Origin: Octopus vulgaris
Lineage: Eukaryota
DNA: 64,000 nt
Direction of reading: 5' to 3'
NCBI GenBank assembly: GCA_951406725.2
Contig: OX597815.1
Span: 214,458,001-214,522,000 of the forward strand
The notes below the pieces were generated by a model. The model was not told where the DNA came from. It searched no databases and saw only the letters and a list, made by a program, of their open reading frames with translations. A program made the position numbers and the translations under genes. This document shows, one piece after another, positions 4,726-53,199 of this stretch. The stretch's first letter is position 1. Every line of letters begins with the position of its first letter.

Positions 4726-5144
4726 CATGAACTACCTGTTACTTTCTCAGGTGCAGCACGGAATTTCGTCAGTGAACAGGTCGTGGTCTCAAAGCGACGA
4801 AAATATTTTAACAAATTAAATTTAAATGTTGAAATGAATCTAACAGTTTTTGTGTGTGTTTAAATGGCTTAAAAACACCTTCCACGCCGCAGTTGATATA
4901 GGAATGTTTGCGTCAAAATTACTTTATTTAGTATAAAACAAAAATAATAATATGGAAAAAATCAGAAATATAAAATCATTTATATAACATTTGGCAGGTT
5001 TTGTCTTTCGTCCTACAGGGTGTCCAACGAAAACTATATTTTTTACCAAACATGCTTCGCAGCCCGTTTAGACGCCGACGGCCCGACGATGCAACACTGG
5101 CACTGGTAACCTTACACGTCACCAGGAGCATTAAGAGAGACCTT

Positions 5145-5289
5145 CAGACATATATACATAAATATATACATACATACTTACATATATACATACATACATA
5201 CATACATACATGCATGCATACATACATACTTACATATATACATACATACATACATACATACATGCATGCATGCATACATACATACATAC

Positions 5290-5320
<31 letters not shown>

Positions 5321-5549
5321 CATACGTATATACATACATACATACATACATACATACATACATACATACATACTTACATATATACATACATACATTCATA
5401 CATGCATACATACATACATACATACATACATACATACATACAGACATACATACTTACATACATACATGCATGCATACATATATACATACATACATACATA
5501 CATACATACATACATACATACATACATACAGACAGACAGACATACATAC

Positions 5550-5580
<31 letters not shown>

Positions 5581-6101
5581 CATACATACATACATACATA
5601 CATACATGCATACATACATACATACATGCATGCATACATATATACATACATACATATATACATACATACATACATACATATATACATATATACATACATA
5701 CATACACACATACATACATACATACATACATACATACATACATACATACATACAGACATACATACATACATACATACATACATACATACATACATACAGA
5801 CATACATACTTACATATATACATACATACTTACATATATACATACATACATACATACATACATACATACATACAGACATACATACTTACATATATACATA
5901 CATGCATACATACATACATACATACATACATACAGACATACATACTTACATATATACATACACATACATACATACATACAGACATACATACATACATACA
6001 TACATACATACTTACATATATACATACACATACATACATACATACATACATACATACATACATACTTACATATATACATACACATACATACATACATACA
6101 G

Positions 6102-6134
<33 letters not shown>

Positions 6135-6196
6135 CATATATACATACATACATACATACATACATACATACATACATACATACATACATACATACA

Positions 6197-6230
<34 letters not shown>

Positions 6231-6669
6231 CATACACATACATACATACATACAGACATACATACATACATACATACATACTTACATATATACATACACA
6301 TACATACATACATACATACATACATACATACATACATACTTACATATATACATACACATACATACATACATACAGACATACATACATACATACATACATA
6401 CTTACATATATACATACACATACATACATACATACATACATACATACATACATACATACATACATACATACATACATACATACATACATACATACATACA
6501 TACATACATACATACATACATGCATACATACATGCATGCATACATACATACATACATACATACATACATACATACTTACATATATACATACACATACATA
6601 CATACATACATGCATACATACATGCATGCATACATACATACATACATATATACATACATACATACATAT

Positions 6670-6700
<31 letters not shown>

Positions 6701-6718
6701 CATACATACATACATACA

Positions 6719-6750
<32 letters not shown>

Positions 6751-6808
6751 CATACATACATACATACATACATACATACATACATACATACATGCATACA
6801 TACATACA

Positions 6809-6868
<60 letters not shown>

Positions 6869-6902
6869 CATACATACATACATACATACATACATACATA
6901 CA

Positions 6903-6934
<32 letters not shown>

Positions 6935-7004
6935 CATACATACATACATACATACATACATACATACATACATACATACATACATACATACATACATACA
7001 TACA

Positions 7005-7038
<34 letters not shown>

Positions 7039-7178
7039 CATACATACATACATATATACATACATACATACATACATGCATGCATACATACATACATACA
7101 TACATACATGCATGCATACATACATACATACATACATACATACATACATACATACATACATACATACATACATACATT
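5145..7178. repeat. ~2-kb (TACA)n microsatellite with variant units
   Basis: Directly visible; source of the 640-734 aa YIHT ORFs. Confidence 0.98.
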
Positions 7179-7562
7179 TATCGACGTTTCATAAAACGCC
7201 AATAATACGCTTAACAGCTTGAAAGTCACATTTTATTTCCTTGCCATAAAATAAGGCCTCATACTTTCATAAGAATTGTTGCTGCTATTAATATTAATGC
7301 TGCTGCTGCTGCTGCTGTATGTTGTTGTTGTTCTTCTTTTGGCCCTCGCTATGAAAAGCCGGGATCAAAGACATTTCAGTCTTGGTCATTCAGTTTTCCA
7401 GAGATGCTACAGATCAAATATAATATACCATTCCCTTTTTTTAAAATGGTAGACCAACATTTGAGGAGATACTTAGTTGCTGTTTCGAGCGAGTCAAACG
7501 ACAATTGCATAGAGGCTTCGTTGTTGTCGTTGCCTATAAAAAAATTTAATACTTCAAGCCTT

Positions 7563-15270: not shown

Positions 15271-15760
15271 TATACGTAAATATAAGAGAGTAACCACTAT
15301 GTGGTCAACTCTAGCACTAAAAATAGATCCGCTAGGTTTCAGCCACGAAGAATTGTTTCCGATGAAAGTTAGCGTAAACGAACAGGGCAAATAAAAATAA
15401 CAAAAATGCAGATTGGTTCAGGACAATTGTTTCGCTATTAATAAATTATGTAATTTTACTCTCATAACATATCTGTAGCTCCTCAGCCGAGCCCGTCCAG
15501 AATACAATTTACTCAACCGCACGCCAGATTTTACCATAACGATAAACACTCGTGCGGTTAAGTCGATTGTATTCGCTGTTATAATTCAAGTGCTCCTGCC
15601 ACAGCCCGCCAAAATTCACGGAAACAGATACTACATCAAAAAATAAATGTAGTATAATTACAATCAACTACGGAAACAATTCTTCGTGGCTGAAACCTAG
15701 CGGATCTATTTTTGTGCTTGAGTCGACCACATAGTGGTTACTCTCTTATATTTACGTATA
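15271..15760. mobile_element. Fold-back element with ~90-bp inverted arms (Penelope-derived or TA-TSD MITE)
   Basis: tatacgtaaatataagagagtaaccactatgtggtc...aattgtttccg versus its reverse complement ending at 15760. Confidence 0.8.
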
Positions 15761-24092: not shown

Positions 24093-26262
24093 TATTTCAA
24101 AACATTTGCCATAAAGGCAGTACACAGATTAAGTTAGCTTTGCGGGCTGGACGAGGACATTAATGAAGTGAATGATAATGAAAGAAAGATGATAAGGATG
24201 GGAGAAGACAAAAAGTGCCCGCCGACTTTCGCTTCCCTAAAACATTGTTCTTTTTAAGGATAAACACAAAACGAGGTATTAAACCTCTTACAATTTTTCC
24301 AATTTTTGGATTTAGCAGTCCATTATTAATAAAAATAAACACAAAACGAGGTATTAAACCTCTTACAATTTTTCAATTTTTGGACTTAGCAGTCCATTAC
24401 TAATAATAACAGTTCAATAATTACATATCGTCCTTGAAGTCGCTTGTGCCCGCGCCCTCCACCATCAACCACGCCTCCCTCAGAACGTAATCAAGTTCCG
24501 AGTCAGCGTCGCCCGGGACCAAGTTATAGTCTTCCTTGAGCTCCTTTAGCCCAAGCGTCACGTCGAACGGAGGCCATTCGGGGTCCTGTGTGAAGGCTAA
24601 AGGTGCTCCCTTGTGATGCTCTTCCATCACTTTTTCAATTTCTCCTCCTCTATAGAAGAGGACCAATACGTTCAGTTCTTTCGGTGGCGACACAGTTCCC
24701 GCCAACGGTATTCCTTCTCTTGTCGGTGGCACAACCCCAACCGACGTAGTTCCGGGACATTCCGGTGCTACACTGACAGTCGGTAATGTCCCGTTTTTCT
24801 TCCTCTTTTTCTTTTTTTTCCCCTTTTCAACTGAGGGAGGGTACGTCTCCTCCGTGGCTGGAAGATTCGCCTTCCTCTCCTCATCCCTATTATCCTTTGG
24901 TGAGCACCCATTGTTGCTCACCTTCCTCTTTCGGCCTCTGTTTGAGGAGTCCTCTGCTTTCTCGGCCGTTATCATTCCCTCTTCTAGAGGGGTTTTACTT
25001 AACTGTTCCGGGATCCTATTTTGTTCCCGGGGACAGTTCTTCTTTATGTGGCCGGACTCCAAGCACCGATGACACTTAGGGGGGCGACCCTCAAGCATCA
25101 CCGGGTACCTGCACCCGGCCATTTTCAAAAAATCTGGAAGAACCAGATTGGCTGATTGGGTCCACAGGGTCAAAATTGCTTTTGACCCAACCCAAGCAGC
25201 CGCAGGAAGAACTTTTACATTAAGGAGCTTAGTTTCGCTGCCACCCAGACCCCGGCGGATAGTCTCCTCTATCCACTCGGGTTCTATGTCGGGTGGCAGA
25301 CCGCAAATCCAAGCTTTCATCACTTTCTTTTTTTGTACGTGGGCAGGAATAAGATTTCCTTACCCTCCAGGGGTTTGCTTAGCAAATTTGCAAGCCTCTT
25401 CATGGGTGTCAAATAGCAACCACACCGTTGCATATTTGACACCCCTGGAAATGAATTTAATTGTTGGCAAATACTCTTCCAACTCCTTTTCAATTGCCGT
25501 CTTTTCGAATAGGGCGATGGTGTCGAGTGCCTTGGAGTAGGTTCTCAACACCACCGTCCTATCTTCACGGTCTTTTAACTACTTTTTAGGCGGTATGATC
25601 TCCCATTCCAAAAGTTTGTTATTTTTCATTGCCATGTTCTTTTTTTTTTTTTTTTTTTTTTAAATGTATTCAGAATAAAACTAAAAAACGAGAGGAAAAG
25701 GAAATCCGAAGAAAGTCACAGTGAAAAAGGAGAGAGTCAAATAAAGTTAAAAAGAAAGTCAAATAAAGTTAAAAAGAAAGTCAATAACACAGCAAAAACC
25801 TTCTGGCCATTTGGTACTCCCGGCCTAAATTGAACCAGGTGGCACAACTTCCACAAAACTTGGTGTAAAATTGGTAAAACTTGTTCAAACTTCGGAGGCA
25901 AAATACTCCCCTATATAGCAGTTTTCACAAAAAGTTCTTTACAGCACAATACAATTCTCACAATTACGTGAAAAAAATATTCACTCAATTTATCGAAGAC
26001 GGATACGCCCCTCCACTGTTTTTTTTTTCAATAAACACAAAAACGGCAGCCGCCGAGAGCAGGCGAAATTGTCTCAGAGTTGGACACAACTTACTGAAAT
26101 AATAATTGGCACGCAATAAATTATGCCCAACTCACAATAAACAAAATCACTTACCTCGACAACTTTCCGTTTTTGGTCTTTTTTCTTTAATTGGACGGAG
26201 CTGGTTGACTCGCGTCCACTCTGGCTGAACAGGAAGCAACTGACTAACTGCGCATGTGTGTT
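24093..26262 (-). mobile_element. ORF1-only non-autonomous LINE (HAL1-like), 2170 bp
   Basis: 12-bp TSD agcaagctactt (24081-24092, 26263-26274); agtcagtt initiator-like 5' end, ~630-bp 5'UTR, one ORF1, ~330-bp 3'UTR ending AATAAA; no RT/EN. Confidence 0.85.
24421..25632 (-). pseudogene. LINE ORF1 / Gag-like nucleic-acid-binding protein with CCHC knuckle (disrupted N-terminus)
   Basis: CHRCLESGHIKKNC (CX2CX4HX4C), basic KKKKKRKK tract; 300 open codons 24421-25323; stops near 25580 and 25360. Confidence 0.8.
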
Positions 26263-32733: not shown

Positions 32734-33190
32734 GAGGGTGGGGTGAATATATTGCCGTCTAAATTATGCGGAATGAAAATAACACTGACATCTCATTTTA
32801 TCAGATATATTTACCAAAATTATATGAAATTATCTTGAAATACTAAAGAGTAAATTTATTCAATAAAATCGCCATTGGCTTCAACCACGGCCTCCAGACA
32901 ACTTCGGAATCTCCTACAACTCTTTTGGGTGGTCTCCTTGTATAAATTGGTGAATGTTGCTATAATCCTTGCCTTCACTTCATCTTTGGTGCTACAAGGA
33001 GTTTTGTTGGTCTCTCGCTCAAAATAATAAAGGGGGTTGCAGTCTGGGGAGTTATGTGGCCTGATGTTAGGGGTGATGTGGTCGCAGAAATTGTCTGACA
33101 GCCATGACTGAGTTTTCCTGCTTTTGTGGCTTGATGCAGGGTCCTGTTGCCAGACATAGAGTCTTCCAGCAGCTTTGTCTTTATGACCAT
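32732..33190 (-). pseudogene. Tc1/mariner DD37D (maT) transposase C-terminal fragment and element end
   Basis: YVWQQDPASSHKSRKTQSWLSDNFCDHITPNIRPHNSPDCNP then ERETNKTPCSTKDEVKARI...CRRFRSCLEAVVEANGDFIE*; spacing fits D37D. Confidence 0.85.
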
Positions 33191-35969
33191 CCGTATTTTA
33201 TGCAGCCACAGAAGTATATTTTTTTTTATATGCCTTTCCTTTCTTAAGACGTTGGGGAGATTTGCCTGATATTTCTAGAAGGCTGAGGAAACCACATATT
33301 CTTATATATGTACATAAGTAAATAAATATATACTCATTTATGTACGATCATGGATTTTTACTTTTTACTCATTTCTACAATTAGAAATGTAGAAACCCAA
33401 TTCCGTTACCATAATCTTGTATCATGCAATTCTATTTTCTTCTAAATCATCTCCGATTATTTTACTAAGAATGCCATCTTTATTTGATCAGAAATAGATT
33501 GCTAACAAAATGAACGCAGGAGTTATCGGAAAAATCCCAAACAGACTAACCCACTAACGTTCTTCGTTGGATATCTTAATTGTGGAGTTTATACATTTGT
33601 GTGTGTATGTTGTATGTATGTTTATGTTTCCCGATTGCTCCTTTGGAAGCATTTAGAATTAGCAAACTGCTAGTCATAATAACCAAGTCTCCCTTAAATG
33701 AAACCTATTGACTTGAAAAGAGAGGAACACATTAAATAATATAGTTCGAGATATCTGAGAATGGAACTGGTCGATCATAGCTGGAACGCTTCTAATGAGA
33801 AGACTGCACATTTAAATTGACCTAGGATGAGCTTGACTAAAGCATTATGGAGTTACCGGGCATAGGCCAAGCGAGAAAACAAATCCGTGGTTCGTAACTC
33901 GAAGTTATTGCTGCACTGTGCCCAGAGACTTATCTTCCAATATTGCCGTTCGGTTTGCTGGGAAGAAGCATCGTGCTTAAATATTATATTTCATGATATT
34001 TAGACATTGTTTACAAGTAAGATTTAATAATAAACTTCACATATTCTAGACAACCGCCTTATCAAGATTACTTACATTTCTTTACTATTCTAATGTTCTG
34101 ATTGAATTCCAATAAATAAATTAATGCAAGAGATATCATTACTCGGCGAGAATTTTATTAAATAATTAGTTTATTTCCCCAACTGAGACTACCCAAACTT
34201 CTAGCTTCTAACCAATCTAAGATTAAAATCATGCAGTTTTAAAATCATTAATTCTGTAAGGTAGCTTAAACAAATATCATTGACACACTGACAGACTATA
34301 AATAAAGGCACCGATAGAGATTAAATATCATTTTTCAGTTCTAGGTTTCAACGTTTTGTTCAATCAGCCACAGTGAACGTGTCATGCCCTGACAAATTCA
34401 GTCTGACTGGAGAAATATATATAAAAAAGAAGGCAATGTCTATTATTAAATAAGCAAAATTTATGTATGTATACGTGTGTAGCCTACAATAATCCAACTT
34501 TTCTGTTGCTTTAAATGCTCAGTCTGCTATTAAGACCACTCTAGTTGATTTATAGCCGACTGCATTAAGAACAGAGTTCAAATATGTCGTCGTAATTCAT
34601 TGAGTGTCGACAACAACGACAGGCTTCAGTTCACGCCTCCCCAAAACATTACAAGACAGAAATCAGGTTAGACTTGTAAGATAAAGCATACATACTCACT
34701 AAAACATGGCCACCCGATATCGTAGCTACGTCCTGCACAATATTAATCATAGATTAAACGCATCTCTATTCTACCTATGTAGGTCAACTAAAACTGAATG
34801 CATCCGAATACATTTGTATAAGTCATTCATAACATGGTATCTTTACAAGGTAAATAGTAAAATTTGAACGAAAATAAATATGCCAATAAAACATTGTTGC
34901 TTTCTAAAGGTGTAGTCTGACAAAATCTATTTCGAAAAGTACTGACAATCAAAATAGTTTCAGAGTGAACACTATTTTCAGCAAACATACTTGCTTCTCG
35001 TTATGAATTCCACTGTTACTAAGCATTCGTTAACGGTATCACAGAAATTAATAAAGACCAGAAAGAAATAGATCTACTCTGGCTGTTGTTTTACAATTTA
35101 TTTCGTTCAGTTCTTGTAATACGTCCCTGGGCAGAAAGTTTTCCTGAAATTATCATTAATGTATTGTTTTGTAATAATGCTTTCGATCAAAAAGATATTA
35201 CTACAGAATGTGATATGGAAGTACGTTGAATCGTGCCTCTAGCTGGTTAGAAGAAACATGTAACATGTGATTGAGAAATAGATTGAATTAGCAAACTGTA
35301 TTTAATGAAAGTGTTCATTTTATCAAAACTGTTATTTTCGTTAGGAATATATATGGATGGAAGTGCTAGGCGGGCGGGCAGGCTGGCAGGCGGGCAGGCT
35401 GGCACTGACTCTTTGTGTATGTGGTGTTTTATTCTGGTGGCAGTGACAGTGCTACAGCGATGCCGATGCTTGGTGCTGTTGATTGTGGTAGTAGAGATGA
35501 TAGCAACACAAGAGAAAAGGAGAATAATGATAAAATGGAAAAATTTACTGTACTGAATATACAGGCGGATAAGATGGGGAATAAGAAAAGTACAATTGAA
35601 AGGAAACGTAAAAAGAAGAAAACGGAAGACGGGGGGAGGAATATCAATAGAAGGAAGAGTAAAGGAGAGAAGAAAGGAAATAGAGTTGAAATTGCAGTTT
35701 GAAAGTATTAACGTGTTTTGAGAGCAATCTTGATCATTCACATTTACATGGAAATAGATCTCGACTGGTATTTATCGATACAAATATTACAATTGAGGTT
35801 GGACTACTGAAGAGGAGATAGATAAGCGGTGGAAATAAATGGTTTATTATGTGCTGCTTTATTCTGGTTATTTTAGTGTCATATTTTCTCTTTAAATTGT
35901 AGATAAAGTTTCAGGAAACAATGTTTAAAACTTTACAAAAATTTAAGGACTTAATAATAGTTTAAAATT

Positions 35970-38642: not shown

Positions 38643-40470
38643 TTTCTCTTTATTGCAGGTTTTGTTGGATCTCCTGGAGTCTTGCATGCGTAGCGGGCTT
38701 ACTAATTGCATCCTACGGTACCATGTTATTCGTTCTTTTCAGCTATCAAATACTTCCCTGATTATTTTGGTTGTGCCAAAGAGGCAAACCTTTTGAAACA
38801 GTTCTACTGGGAACTCTATTCCAATTTCCTCATTATTCTTCTTGGCGCCTTCTGATACTGTTCCCAAGCTTCCAACAATAATTGGCTCTATCTTCACCTT
38901 CTTCATTTTCCATATCCGGGATGTTTCGTACTTAAGCGGGTTGTATCTAGCTAACTTTTCGCCTTTCTACTTGACTATTCATGTGTCAAAGGGGTATGTA
39001 ACATCAACTATATAGCATATGTGGTGCACCTTATCTACCACCACTAGGTCTGGTTTGTTATGCTCTAGCACCTGATTTGTTTGGAATGGGAAATCCCAGA
39101 GGATTTTGCTAGACTCCGACTCCTCCACTCTCTGGCAATTGTGCTCATACCACGTCTTGCCTCTCTCTAGCTCCCACATTTCGCACAGTTTCCAATGTAG
39201 CGCATTCGTTATCTGGTCGTGTCGCTACAACTTGTATTGGTTTTGGGCAAGTCTAGAGCATTCGTTCGTGATATGGGCAATGGTTTCATCCACTCTATTG
39301 CAGCTGCTACACAGCAGAGATACTTGCTCATTCCTCAAGTTGACCCTCCAGTTCGTGGCCAGAGCTTCGTCCAGCGCTGCCAGTATAGTGCTCACGGTCT
39401 CTTTTTTAGGGTTCCTTTCATTAGTTAATCCCACCTATTTTATCCAGCAACTTTTGTTGTGGCTACATAGAATTGATTGTGTAATCCTTTGCGTAATTCT
39501 TCTTCATGTCCTTTTTGTACTTTTTCCTTTGTTTTCCCTTTTTCTCTTCTCTCAATACTCCCTCGTTCCTAACTGTCGCTATCACGGTTTCCTTACTTTG
39601 GGCTAGGTATCCCATTAAGCTCTCGAGTTCGATACACACGCAGTCTTCCACACTTATCAGTCCCCTTCTTCCATTTACTCTCTTCTTGTATAGGCGATCA
39701 GCATCTGCACATGGTTGATGGACCCATGCATCGTCAGGAGCTTCCTTGACTTCCTGTCCATCTCCTTTAGCTCCTCCTCTGTCCTTTTGAGGATTCCAAC
39801 GCCATCCCGAACTACTGCGACTGCGCGCGAGTTCATTGCCAAAGTTATGTTTCTGGCATTCAGCTTTGAAGCCAATGTTTTTCTCACTCGCCGCAGGTAC
39901 TCTCTTTTTCTCTTCTCTTCCAAGTATTCCCAAGTATTTATAGCTGGATTGCGATTGGATTGCCTACATCATTTCACTTCTCTCTTGGCAAGCTTTCCAC
40001 GTCTCATCACCATCTTAATATCATTGGAGAAAATCCGCACAGACTGGACTAGGCTGTCTTGTTTTGCCTCAGTTTTTGTGAATAGCATAAGATCGTCCAT
40101 GAATAGCAAGTGGTTTAGTTTTTCCTTATCTCTTCCCAGATCATACCCCAACTTTGTTTTCTGTAATATTTCATTCAAGGGTTTCATTCTCAGCACGAAT
40201 ATCAGTGGGGACACACTGTCCTCCTGGAAGATTCCTCTCTTGATTTTCCTCCTCTCCTAGTACTTGCTTTCCTGCTGTCAATTCCGTTCTCCAGAATTTC
40301 CTATCATTCCATATCAGGCTTCTCATATTCTCCGCTACTCCATACATTTCCATTGTTCTTATTATCCAGGAGTGTTGTATCATATCGTATGCTTTGCGAT
40401 AGTCAACCCATGCCACGCTCAGGTTTGTATGTCTACTCTTGCATGTTGCTCATTGGGTCAAGGTTGGGGC
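38580..40470 (-). mobile_element. 5'-truncated Dong/R4-clade LINE (RT, CCHC, REL endonuclease) ending in (TAA)n; pseudogenised
   Basis: AWVDYRKAYD, SPLIFV, NHLLFMDDLMLF (RT); CSSC..DETIAHITNEC..RHD; WYEH..KILWDFPFQT..HNKPDLVVVD..IVDV (REL); 3' (TAA)n at 38580-38640. Confidence 0.92.
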
Positions 40471-40599: not shown

Positions 40600-41400
40600 A
40601 GCAGTGCGATCCCCATTAAAGACTAAATTTACGACAAACACAGGGCTCCTCATGCAGTTCTACTTCACGTAATGTCCTGTAAGATGCAGCAGAGACGTTG
40701 TTCTCTCTGATAATCTCATCCAATCTGTGTATCACCTCAAGTATACATCTTTCATTTGCTGCATTCTGAGCCCGCACTGCGGCGGGGTGAACGCTGTCAA
40801 CAACATACAGTTGAGCAAACTGCCTCTGTTGGCCCTCAACAGGATTCATGTGTGAAGTTCTGTGATAAACTTGGCCGTGCACTCTGAAGCAGAATGGACC
40901 TCGTCCTTGTGGGTCATCAATGTGAGCATCCATATTCCGAAAGATAGAGTAGAGTTGTATGACATTATGTTTTCTTTGAAGTTACCATAATGTGGATGTT
41001 GAGGGTCTGACAACACAGATTGTAAATATGGTGGAAATCCTCTTCTAACTGGAGACAGAACTTGCCCTTTATGGCAGCAACTGTTAAAGCTTCCGTCTGA
41101 TAGTCACTCTGAAGCAAAATGTTTGGCTCTACAAAACTGACATAATGCGTTCAGGTCACCACAGTTATGAACTTGAATATTCTCTTCATTATAAGTGTGA
41201 TTATTTACTAAATTTACATGATTACCAACTCTTCGCCGCGGAACTCTCATGGCGTTCGCATTCTGCTGCATTCGATTATTTCTTCGTTCTTCTGTTTCAG
41301 TATTAATTAACTCTTCCATTCTTTTTCTCATTCGTTCTCTACGAACATTTGCTTCTTCTTCAATTTCATTCTCTAGGCTTAGTCTCTCATTCTCTCTCTT
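40600..41400 (-). pseudogene. Helitron RepHel N-terminal fragment
   Basis: HNCGDLNALCQFCRAKHFASE...CCHKGQV zinc finger; FKENIMSYNSTLSF; GRGPFCFRVHGQVYHR...FAQLYVVD. Confidence 0.88.
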
Positions 41401-49419: not shown

Positions 49420-49842
49420 GTGACCTCCTTCGATCATGAATGACCATGGGATTGCACCTAGAAAGTTACCCTCCGAGGAACATGTCTGGGCAAGGTTGTT
49501 TATGGAAGACCAGAAGTCGCCCACACATACCAGTCTCTCCTCTCCACACCACCGATGTTATCCAATACAGCTTGGCACCAGTGACGTCACAACTCATTTA
49601 TACACGTGTACCCTTAACGTAGTTCTAGGGGAGATTTAGAGTGACACAGAGTGTGACAAGGCTGGCCATTTGAAATACAAGTACAACAGAAACAGAAAGA
49701 GTGAGAGAAAGTTGTGGTGAAAGAGTACAGCAGGGTTCACCACCACCCCCTGCTGGAGCCTCGTGGAGCTTTAGGTGCTTTTGCTCAATAAACACTAACA
49801 ATGCCCGGTCTGGGAATCGAAATCGCGATACTACGACCGCAC
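49420..49842 (-). mobile_element. Nested or chimeric family-B and family-D SINE pieces
   Basis: 49420-49600 matches 50985-51180; 49700-49842 matches the family-B head and body. Confidence 0.8.
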
Positions 49843-49845
49843 CTC

Positions 49846-49906
<61 letters not shown>

Positions 49907-50091
49907 TTTATAAAAATATGGTAAAGTGAAATAATTTACTTTACCACACACCGAGCTTTTTAGAAATAGCAGCCAAAAGTTTGGCTATTTCTTCTACTGC
50001 AAGAAAAAGTCTCCCAGACAATGCATACTCAGAAATAAGTCACATAGGTATAAGGGAAAAAAACAACGAAAGATCACATCCATATAAGATA

Positions 50092-50154
50092 TCCGAGGAC
50101 AGCCTGTTTCTGGATTAGTTGATTAAACGCCAACATTTCCTTCATCAGCTCAGA
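50092..50154 (-). ncRNA. Type-I hammerhead ribozyme, intact core
   Basis: tctgag-CTGATGA-a-gga...tcc-a-GAAAC-aggct-GTC-ctcgga. Confidence 0.85.
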
Positions 50155-50585
50155 GATTTCTTCTGATTTAGATTTGAAAGTACTAAGAATCAAACATACC
50201 CGTCCGATATATGTAACACCGGACAAACCATGCCAGACCACCAGTACTAGCGAATCCCAAAATACAAATGAGATCTAGTATTCTCCCTGTCCACCCACGT
50301 GAGTCACAGAGTAGTGCATTCCTACAGAGGCAAAACTGTAGTTCAAATTCTTGGGGAGAAAGCATTATATTGTCAATAAAAAAGGGTAGAATTAATTAAT
50401 TATTAATTAATTCGACCGAGCAGTGTTCGGTATGTAAAAAGACCATTTACGGTATATTTGAAATATCACTTTATAAAAATAGGGTAAAGTGAAATAATTT
50501 ACTTTACCACACACCGAGCTTTTTAGAAATAGCAGCCAAAAGTTTGGCTATTTCTTCAACTGCAAGAAAAAGTCCCAGACAATGC

Positions 50586-50650
50586 ATCTGAGCTGATGAA
50601 GGAAATGTTGGCGTTTAACCCACGAATTCAGAAACAGGCTGTCCTCGGAT
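50586..50650 (+). ncRNA. Type-I hammerhead ribozyme, intact core
   Basis: atctgag-CTGATGA-a-gga...ttc-a-GAAAC-aggct-GTC-ctcggat; predicted cleavage after C50643. Confidence 0.85.
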
Positions 50651-50832
50651 ATCTTATATGGATGTGATCTTTCGTTGTTTTTCCCTTATACCTATGTGAG
50701 TTATTTCTGAGTATGCATTGTCTGGGAGACTTTTTCTTGCAGTTGAAGAAATAGCCAAACTTTTGGCTGCTATTTCTAAAAAGCTCGGTGTGTGGTAAAG
50801 TAAATTATTTCACTTTACCATATTTTTATAAA

Positions 50833-50903
<71 letters not shown>

Positions 50904-50977
50904 CATATATATATACATATATATATATACAAATATATACATACATATATATATACATACATATACATACATATATA

Positions 50978-51691
<714 letters not shown>

Positions 51692-51818
51692 TATATTATA
51701 TTAAATTAGAGACAAAACCACTATTGTGCAAATCAAACAATGAAAGACTTAAGCCAATACATAAATTAATTTATATTATTTAGATATGTAACAATTATTA
51801 AAAAAATATAATTAATAT

Positions 51819-51881
51819 CCACTACGATCGTTTCCTGTCTTCTGTCATCAAATTTTTGAGTAGCAGACATTCATCAGGTGG
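51819..51881 (-). ncRNA. Minimal type-I hammerhead ribozyme
   Basis: Reverse complement of 51949-52011. Confidence 0.85.
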
Positions 51882-51948
51882 TTTCAAATTTTTCTTGGCG
51901 AGTTTTAAACAATGAACTCGTTTAAAACTCGCCAAGAAAATTTTGAAA

Positions 51949-52011
51949 CCACCTGATGAATGTCTGCTACTCAAAAATTTGATGACAGAAGACAGGAAAC
52001 GATCGTAGTGG
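51949..52011 (+). ncRNA. Minimal type-I hammerhead ribozyme
   Basis: ccac-CTGATGA-a-tgtct...agaca-g-GAAAC-gatc-GTA-gtgg; palindromic ACGATCGT stem III; predicted cleavage after A52007. Confidence 0.85.
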
Positions 52012-52014
52012 ATA

Positions 52015-52531
52015 TCTATATATATAAAACTGTAGTTGTGTGAGTGTCTGTCTCCTACGATTTAGATTCCTAACTCCTCCCACATTTTGCGGTGCAGTTT
52101 AACCAAATTCGAGTATCTTATAGTCGTGATTAATATCGAGCCCGTCTGGCTATTAGCGCGCGTCTACGATGAGTCTACGATTTTAAAAATAATTTAACAT
52201 CATTTTTTATTCCATTTTAATGCATAATTTTTCGTGTGTCGATGGCGGCGGAGTTGGCGTCCACACTCAAACACCTGCACCTGTGTTTGCTTCTCCCCGT
52301 TCTTCCCTCCCTCGTGAAGCTGTGGGGAAGGGAGTTTAAGGAAATCAACGTCGTAATGCGTTGTCAAGGAGACCAGCGTTCTTTTAGAACAACGACTTCA
52401 TGGCTTGAAGACACCAAAACAGAAATGGCTAAGAAAGCCCGAATTGGCATCTATAAGGGAAGTGACTCTCTAAAAATGCTTATATAGTTATTTCCCTTAC
52501 AAACCCGAGCAACGCCGGGCGATACTGCTAG
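52015..52531 (+). mobile_element. Complete 517-bp non-autonomous Helitron
   Basis: A|TC...cccgagcaacgccggg hairpin...CTAG|T, no TSD; removal restores the host palindrome exactly. Confidence 0.95.
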
Positions 52532-53199
52532 TTAATTATATTTTTTAATAATTGTTACATATCTAAATAATATAAATTAATTTATGTATTGGCTTAAGTC
52601 TTTCATTGTTTGATTTGCACAATAGTGGTTTTGTCTCTAATTTAATATAATATAATATTTTACTATAAAATTGGATTCAATCCTAAATCTGATTTTTCCC
52701 TGTAAGTTTGGATTTATTCCCTAATATTTATTATACAAATATATATATATACATATATACATATATATATATAGATATATATATACATATATATATACAT
52801 AAATATATATATATATATATATTATGTATGAATGTATGTACATGTGTGTGTGTGTGTTTGTGTTTATGTCTGTACCCCCACAACCACTTGACAGCTGTTG
52901 TTTATTTCTTTGCTACGTATCTGGAACACTACGGTACAGTAAAAGAATGCCATAGACAAAAGTACCGGGCTTTAGCAAAAAAGTAAGTTGTGGAGTCGGT
53001 TTGTTCGACTTAATCTTTCAAGGATGTATCCTAGCATGACCGCCATCCATGACTGAAGCAAACAAAACATAAAGAACATCATAGTCCTCAATAAACTATG
53101 ACATACTATGGAATGGTTACACCTGAGCATGCGCTTGATCAAAAAATCAGTTCGATCTCGGCTGACCTGGAAATAAACATCAACATTTTATGTTAAGTA

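Follow-up and report, generated by a model that had tools for sequence, protein, structure and literature searches.

A short hammerhead-bearing repeat in a probable Penelope-type insertion between TA microsatellites of Octopus vulgaris

Layout of the insertion, its hammerheads and its coding capacity

A stretch of 932 nt (49904-50835) lies between two TA microsatellites in the window, the 64-kb piece of Octopus vulgaris DNA analysed here, and both of its ends fall within (TA)n (Table 1). On the minus strand it reads as a partial tail (120 nt), a 313-nt spacer, a hammerhead and a tail; to this is joined an inverted copy of hammerhead and tail, 251 nt long. Self-comparison places direct copies at 49905-50026 and 50468-50587, 563 nt from start to start, and inverted arms at 49904-50154 and 50587-50835 that agree at 243 of 251 positions (96.8%), the differences being six substitutions and one 2-nt gap. 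Between the internal and the terminal tail there are three differences in 122 nt. The original prediction of a unit of about 563 bp, caught as a partial tandem plus an inversion and running for more than one turn on the minus strand (1.2 units), is thereby upheld in its outline. It had also placed a 2-nt overlap at 50586; measured against the locus's own copies, the inversion junction has a single nucleotide of overlap, 50587. Both arms of the insertion stop at the same base. No target-site duplication is discernible at the (TA)n flanks, and self-comparison finds no further copy of the 563-nt unit elsewhere in the 64-kb window.

The insertion is flanked by two directly oriented copies of another interspersed repeat (49422-49604 and 50986-51186), both adjoining TA tracts. 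They are 88-95% similar, too diverged to be a target duplication.

Table 1. Features of the insertion and its microsatellite flanks (positions within the 64-kb window).
Feature	Positions	Strand	Basis or remark
(TA)n microsatellite, 3' end of main arm, likely target site	49846..49905	.	Sequence
Tail downstream of hammerhead cleavage site, terminal copy	49906..50097	-	Ends at same base as inverted arm
Minimal type I hammerhead of main arm	50092..50154	-	Descriptor; predicted cut after 50098
Spacer, 313 nt, without protein match	50155..50467	-	Protein searches and fold prediction
Putative PLE "tail" extension	50366..50467	-	Loose contig ends (weak) and predicted junction helix
Tail copy 2, 5'-truncated (partial tandem, pseudo-LTR), without hammerhead	50468..50587	-	Self-comparison
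Inverted 5'-truncated copy: hammerhead and tail, 96.8% to main arm	50587..50835	+	Self-comparison
Second hammerhead, family-majority loop II letters	50586..50650	+	Descriptor; core from 50593, predicted cut after 50643
(TA)n / (TACA) microsatellite, end of inverted arm	50834..50977	.	Sequence

A descriptor scan of the 64 kb finds type I hammerheads at 50148-50098 (minus strand) and 50593-50643 (plus strand); the descriptor matches five times in the window and not once in any of 30 block-shuffled windows. Rfam gives no match at the gathering threshold in the 64 kb, and its 40 weak matches at E<=10 are hairpin and TA noise with no hammerhead family among them. The core CUGAUGA...GAAA and the GUC site are complete in both motifs by the descriptor, as had been claimed, with the minus-strand core at 50148-50142 and 50110-50107. 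Stem I has 6 bp in the minus-strand motif and 7 bp in the plus-strand motif. In both, a run of three pairs starts at G10.1-C11.1 and is bordered on either side by an unpaired A; stem III is a palindrome whose self-duplex is predicted at -10.0 kcal/mol. From this palindrome one would expect weak cleavage that depends on a dimer or on protein, and the extra A between C11.1 and G12 may lower ribozyme activity.

The 563-nt unit carries one type I hammerhead, in one polarity only. The second direct copy (50468-50587) has none, so the locus holds one ribozyme per strand. Intact hammerheads on both strands had been expected, and each strand does have one full motif, but the second is a by-product of the inverted arm and not half of an ambisense pair. 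The arms had further been said to differ in the stem-II loop region. This is true of four of the six substitutions, which crowd into 10 nt (P 0.002) and include UCC versus UUC, a change from G-C to G.U that retains pairing as proposed; the other two lie elsewhere.

The expected lack of coding capacity is borne out. Pfam assigns no family to any of the 11 stop-to-stop frames tested, and the search for a longer homologue of a 66-aa frame found none, which is weak evidence. The longest ATG frame (70 aa) was rejected as coding: its three matches are all repeat-inflated chance hits to internally repeated, unrelated proteins, and a 1-nt insertion at 50331, present at about 40-65% of depth, breaks it. 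Pfam, homologue and protein searches of the unit find no trace of a reverse transcriptase (RT) or GIY-YIG domain, so that the open frame of an autonomous Penelope-like element (PLE) is lacking, and ARAGORN reports no tRNA-derived head (0).

The repeat family in other samples

Part of the unit occurs in 20 of the 24 listed runs, under four organism labels, with a best share of 0.49. Contigs were aligned for four of the 24 (X1, X4, X7 and X15; Logan contigs, 80% likeness), which yielded 1126, 761, 33 and 113 contigs. These cover all 30 bins of the unit in X1, X4 and X7 and 28 of 30 in X15, a run only guessed to be RNA and whose cover is not counted as expression; among the listed runs that hold the unit, none is on record as RNA. 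Summed depths reach 10^3-10^5 in two large runs, with 14,204 (X1) and 22,138 (X4) in the lowest spacer bin, a summed contig depth not being a copy number. The hammerhead/spacer joint is bridged by contigs of X1 (record 2) and X7 (record 26), the whole spacer by X15 record 12 (50140-50466; 330 nt, 11 differences) and the spacer/tail joint by X7 record 29 (50181-50554; 375 nt, 8 differences). Taken together, contigs of the four runs give deep cover at each of the 563 positions and leave no junction unbridged. The family of short repeats is therefore real, and in other samples its unit closes after 563 nt.

The share of contigs running into unlike sequence is 0 in X1, 0.01 in X4, 0.36 in X7 and 0.42 in X15; among those listed, the long loose ends in X7 and X15 are mostly TA-rich flank. 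No contig among those listed holds two consecutive hammerheads. A joint at which 50574 goes back to 50014 was discarded as array evidence, being merely the direct repeat within the reference sequence. Other copies end or invert elsewhere (joints 50035/50140 and 50475/50541), and a few contigs of three runs end in (TA)n at 50366, 50380 and 50382 (8, 2 and 1 contigs), which faintly suggests that another 3' end lies some 85-100 nt further on.

In 40 of the 89 variant rows, core bases 3-9 and 12-15.1 are free of variants; the variable sites are in loop II and midway through the stem III palindrome (62% of X4 depth), with an occasional change at C17. Both letter states of the arm-difference sites are found in other samples; at 50120 the letter of the second arm accounts for 60% in X1, 96% in X4 and 21% in X7. 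Exact-pattern scans return no locus in metagenome, viral and prokaryote genome contigs. The family may already be deposited in repeat libraries (Repbase, Dfam, an O. vulgaris library).

Predicted fold of the unit RNA

The unit RNA (GC 36%) is predicted to be highly self-paired, with an unusually stable rod-like fold. The fold energy of its ribozyme strand is -163.9 kcal/mol (z -6.2, a value that none of 100 shuffles reaches), with further z values of -7.6 linear, -6.7 circular and -9.8 in a third fold test; the other strand gives -4.9 linear and -5.8 circular. The background, 22 of 46 microsatellite-poor 563-nt windows, has a mean z of -0.6 and a lowest value of -3.0. In the predicted rod (49990-50383; z -5.0 sense vs -2.5 antisense) the partner of the spacer is the sequence that follows the hammerhead, and an apical arm spans 50179-50248. 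The duplex of these two regions has a z of -4.6 (0 of 300 shuffles), in windows picked after the fold had been seen. Within the unit, the active ribozyme stems are predicted to cost about 6 kcal/mol. The variants were compared with the fold in 34 of the 40 rows (of 89), leaving aside 50077 and five beyond 50468: 12 kept a pair, 6 broke one and 16 were unpaired, with no compensatory double change.

A 9-bp helix is predicted across the unit junction (50517-50509 with 50427-50435; p 0.91-0.99), and the majority letter at 50518 (71% in X1, 94% in X4) would lengthen it. It encloses the point where both arms end, the presumed start of reverse transcription. A helix that spans the insertion end can arise only where the RNA extends beyond it, in a multimer or a circle. 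When either strand is transcribed right through, the RNA is predicted to make 243-244 long-range pairs and to sequester 48 of the 51 hammerhead bases, in agreement with the earlier suggestion that about 250 bp of dsRNA would mask the ribozyme.

The spacer was also considered as an old inverted copy of the tail and rejected, the local alignment (score 91 vs 84+/-8 in shuffles) not being significant; the reading of an ADAR footprint was dropped for the same reason. Inside the putative tail extension, 50385-50417 is an AT-only 11-bp hairpin closed by GC pairs; a T6 run comes after it in the minus-strand direction, close to the ends of other copies.

Identity and origin

The element is quite probably a non-autonomous PLE derivative, that is, a high-copy 563-nt repeat with no detectable coding sequence, lying in (TA)n, that would be copied in trans. 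The insertion bears a pseudo-LTR partial tandem (period 563, with a 120-nt truncated upstream copy), an adjacent inverted 5'-truncated copy at its 5' end, an AT-rich microsatellite target with (TA)n on both sides, and a minimal type I hammerhead in which an extra base follows position 9, G10.1-C11.1 is present and stem III is palindromic. Partial tandems, adjacent inverted truncated copies, a tail and a microsatellite target are standard in PLE insertions (PMC8557442, PMC8969392), and the EN+ clades Penelope/Poseidon, Neptune and Hydra are described with the same pseudo-LTR, inverted 5'-truncated copy and AT-rich or microsatellite target (PMC8557442), as the original prediction held when it took tandem plus inverted pseudo-LTRs for a Penelope signature. 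The hammerheads share the extra base after A9 and the palindromic stem III with those of PLEs, whose repeats carry minimal dimer-type motifs of low activity in vitro; opposite-strand pairs 100-700 bp apart, another likeness, were described as common in 2014 and ascribed to truncated PLEs (PMC4209133). A 3' tail extension, optional in PLEs, may be present here too, at about 85-100 nt compared with 30-40. Unlike PLEs, the unit is only 563 nt long, lacks an RT/GIY-YIG frame and has an extra A before G12, which is not known among the marks of minimal hammerheads (PMC4209133).

In other respects the unit resembles animal non-LTR retrozymes, which are short, non-coding and low in GC, with one type I hammerhead per unit (PMC7229834); the highly self-paired prediction, the high copy and the PLE-bearing host are further points in common. 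Non-LTR retrozymes are themselves regarded as non-autonomous PLE derivatives with units of 51-972 bp, in work whose supplements cover 35 mostly vertebrate genomes and may be relevant to comparing families (bioRxiv 10.64898/2026.07.22.740005). At 563 nt the unit is longer than the expressed circles of animal retrozymes (170-400 nt), and unlike them the locus has an inverted arm. An "active" retrozyme is defined by two consecutive hammerhead-bearing units (bioRxiv 10.64898/2026.07.22.740005); the locus has 1.2 units and, with one same-strand hammerhead, falls outside that definition. The element likely combines a retrozyme-like unit with a PLE-type insertion, a kind already known. No description of a cephalopod retrozyme or an octopus Penelope hammerhead was found in the literature searched.

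In the proposed mechanism, a PLE reverse transcriptase/GIY-YIG protein would copy the unit in trans. It would bind multimeric (or circular) RNA from other loci, nick both strands of AT-rich DNA and begin reverse transcription internally at one fixed site. The first cDNA would run for 1.2 units (682 nt); the second, primed on the opposite strand and taken from a different family RNA, would run for 251 nt, and a head-to-head junction overlapping by 1 nt would unite them. For efficient cleavage the hammerhead would have to dimerise or be assisted by a protein, and the rod fold would keep it in check. An origin from a circular or multimeric RNA had been expected; a multimer fits, but 1.2 turns do not single out a circle. 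In vitro, a PLE protein cleaves the two strands of AT-rich DNA and extends each of them, starting at sites internal to the RNA; the hammerhead is protein-assisted and dispensable for insertion (PMC11167929). How PLEs form tandem and inverted ends is still undefined according to PMC8557442. O. vulgaris has 190 PLE families with a coverage of 6.83%, 31 of them recently active (PMC13282606, PMC8967140), which makes helper elements plausible. We lean slightly towards an account in which each target strand primed its own cDNA on a different RNA of the family and the two cDNAs were joined head to head, given that the arms end at the same base and that their substitutions cluster with both letters found in other samples; the arm difference could also stem from gene conversion. 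The locus itself is likely a dead end, having one ribozyme per strand and a read-through RNA that would be a hairpin of about 245 bp. With one same-strand hammerhead it cannot itself release a 563-nt circle by double self-cleavage, and any circle would come from other loci.

A bona fide non-LTR retrozyme, with arrays elsewhere giving a self-cleaved and ligated 563-nt circle as template and 1.2 turns as one passage, is a sub-case of the PLE derivative that adds a circular intermediate; it is a credible reading, if one we think will rather not hold. Circles of this kind are made by the retrozymes of mussels and corals (PMC7229834), and the closed, low-GC unit, its strong predicted self-pairing as a circle too and the predicted junction helix that forms only in a multimer or circle suit it. 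However, arrays with a second hammerhead appear neither at the locus nor among the listed contigs, the insertion ends off the cleavage site, uncleaved RNA was the main substrate of the PLE tested in vitro (PMC11167929) and eight of nine Xenopus retrozyme dimers were uncleaved (bioRxiv 10.64898/2026.07.22.740005). The three tail differences would also be unexpected right after the copying of one circle, which age could explain.

Improbable, by comparison, is a truncated long coding PLE, of which the spacer would be the 3' end and the junction a product of local truncation. Most animal minimal hammerheads are ascribed to truncated PLEs (PMC4209133), and Logan contigs, being short and broken at branch points, leave room for a longer coding relative that shares the unit's ends. 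Against this, other samples bridge the tail/spacer joint and the whole spacer at a depth like the rest, no RT or GIY-YIG trace was found, and the spacer pairs with the post-hammerhead region in the duplex chosen post hoc. The retrozyme-like short unit of the original prediction is supported, and its proviso that the spacer might belong to a longer coding PLE found no support. A MITE or fold-back DNA element with 250-nt arms as terminal inverted repeats, or a local inverted duplication, would account for the long near-perfect arms and TA flanks but is very improbable in view of the internal direct partial copy at period 563, the hammerhead within the arm, the different end and inversion points of other copies and the strand bias of the rod. 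Viroid-like and HDV-like rod circles, whose hammerheads occur in both polarities, have a long predicted rod and a hammerhead in common with the unit (PMC7936874); here the hammerhead of the unit has one polarity, the second one being a DNA inversion, there is no antigen frame, and the element is integrated in the genome with PLE marks. The single ribozyme polarity per 563-nt unit rules out an HDV-like identity.

The PLE-derivative reading would extend retrozyme-like non-autonomous elements to a cephalopod host and tie both classes at one locus, in a retrozyme-sized unit with a full PLE insertion signature. The architecture is already known and the gain incremental; what merits attention is the predicted stable rod, the helix at the junction and the difference in haplotype between the arms. 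The two-template model could be tested on short high-copy units, whose loop II haplotypes can be told apart. A bolder version, in which octopuses have a high-copy family of 563-nt circular RNAs that are longer and more rod-shaped than the animal retrozyme circles described so far and keep the PLE RT-start domain across the unit junction, and in which this locus records a two-template dimer integration, is a tentative and rather unlikely proposal. If 563-nt circles and two-template integration were real, a protein dimer priming two RNAs would explain inverted pseudo-LTRs, and a tiny, abundant substrate would make the open question of PLE integration testable. The octopus is an animal with heavy A-to-I editing, in which inversions of this kind would also be sources of dsRNA.

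Two more hammerhead-bearing inverted structures lie in the same 64 kb, which makes the layout ordinary in this genome. The first (51692-52654), unrelated to the element above, has identical hammerheads at 51877-51823 (minus strand) and 51953-52007 (plus strand) within a palindrome (51806-52026), with a palindromic stem III and a GUA site. Its outer inverted arms (51692-51815 and 52532-52654) are identical at 123 of 124 positions, with TA tracts outside, and its right tail is interrupted after a short TA run by about 505 nt of other sequence (52027-52531). The other (15271-15760), also unrelated to the 563-nt unit, has inverted arms of 91 nt at its ends (96.7%), next to a TA tract, and one hammerhead at 15486-15422 (minus strand) with canonical G10.1-C11.1, a palindromic stem III and a GUC site.

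Elsewhere in the window, a 312-codon open frame (24421-25359, minus strand) has 59% identity over 56% to an uncharacterised Octopus sinensis protein; we take it to resemble a LINE ORF1-type protein with a zinc knuckle. By eye, the open frames at 32856-33197, 39463-39963 and 40616-40981 presumably resemble Tc1/mariner, RTE-type LINE and Helitron fragments. About 2 kb at 5100-7200 is a (TACA)n-type satellite in which spurious open frames reach great length and the GC skew is strong.
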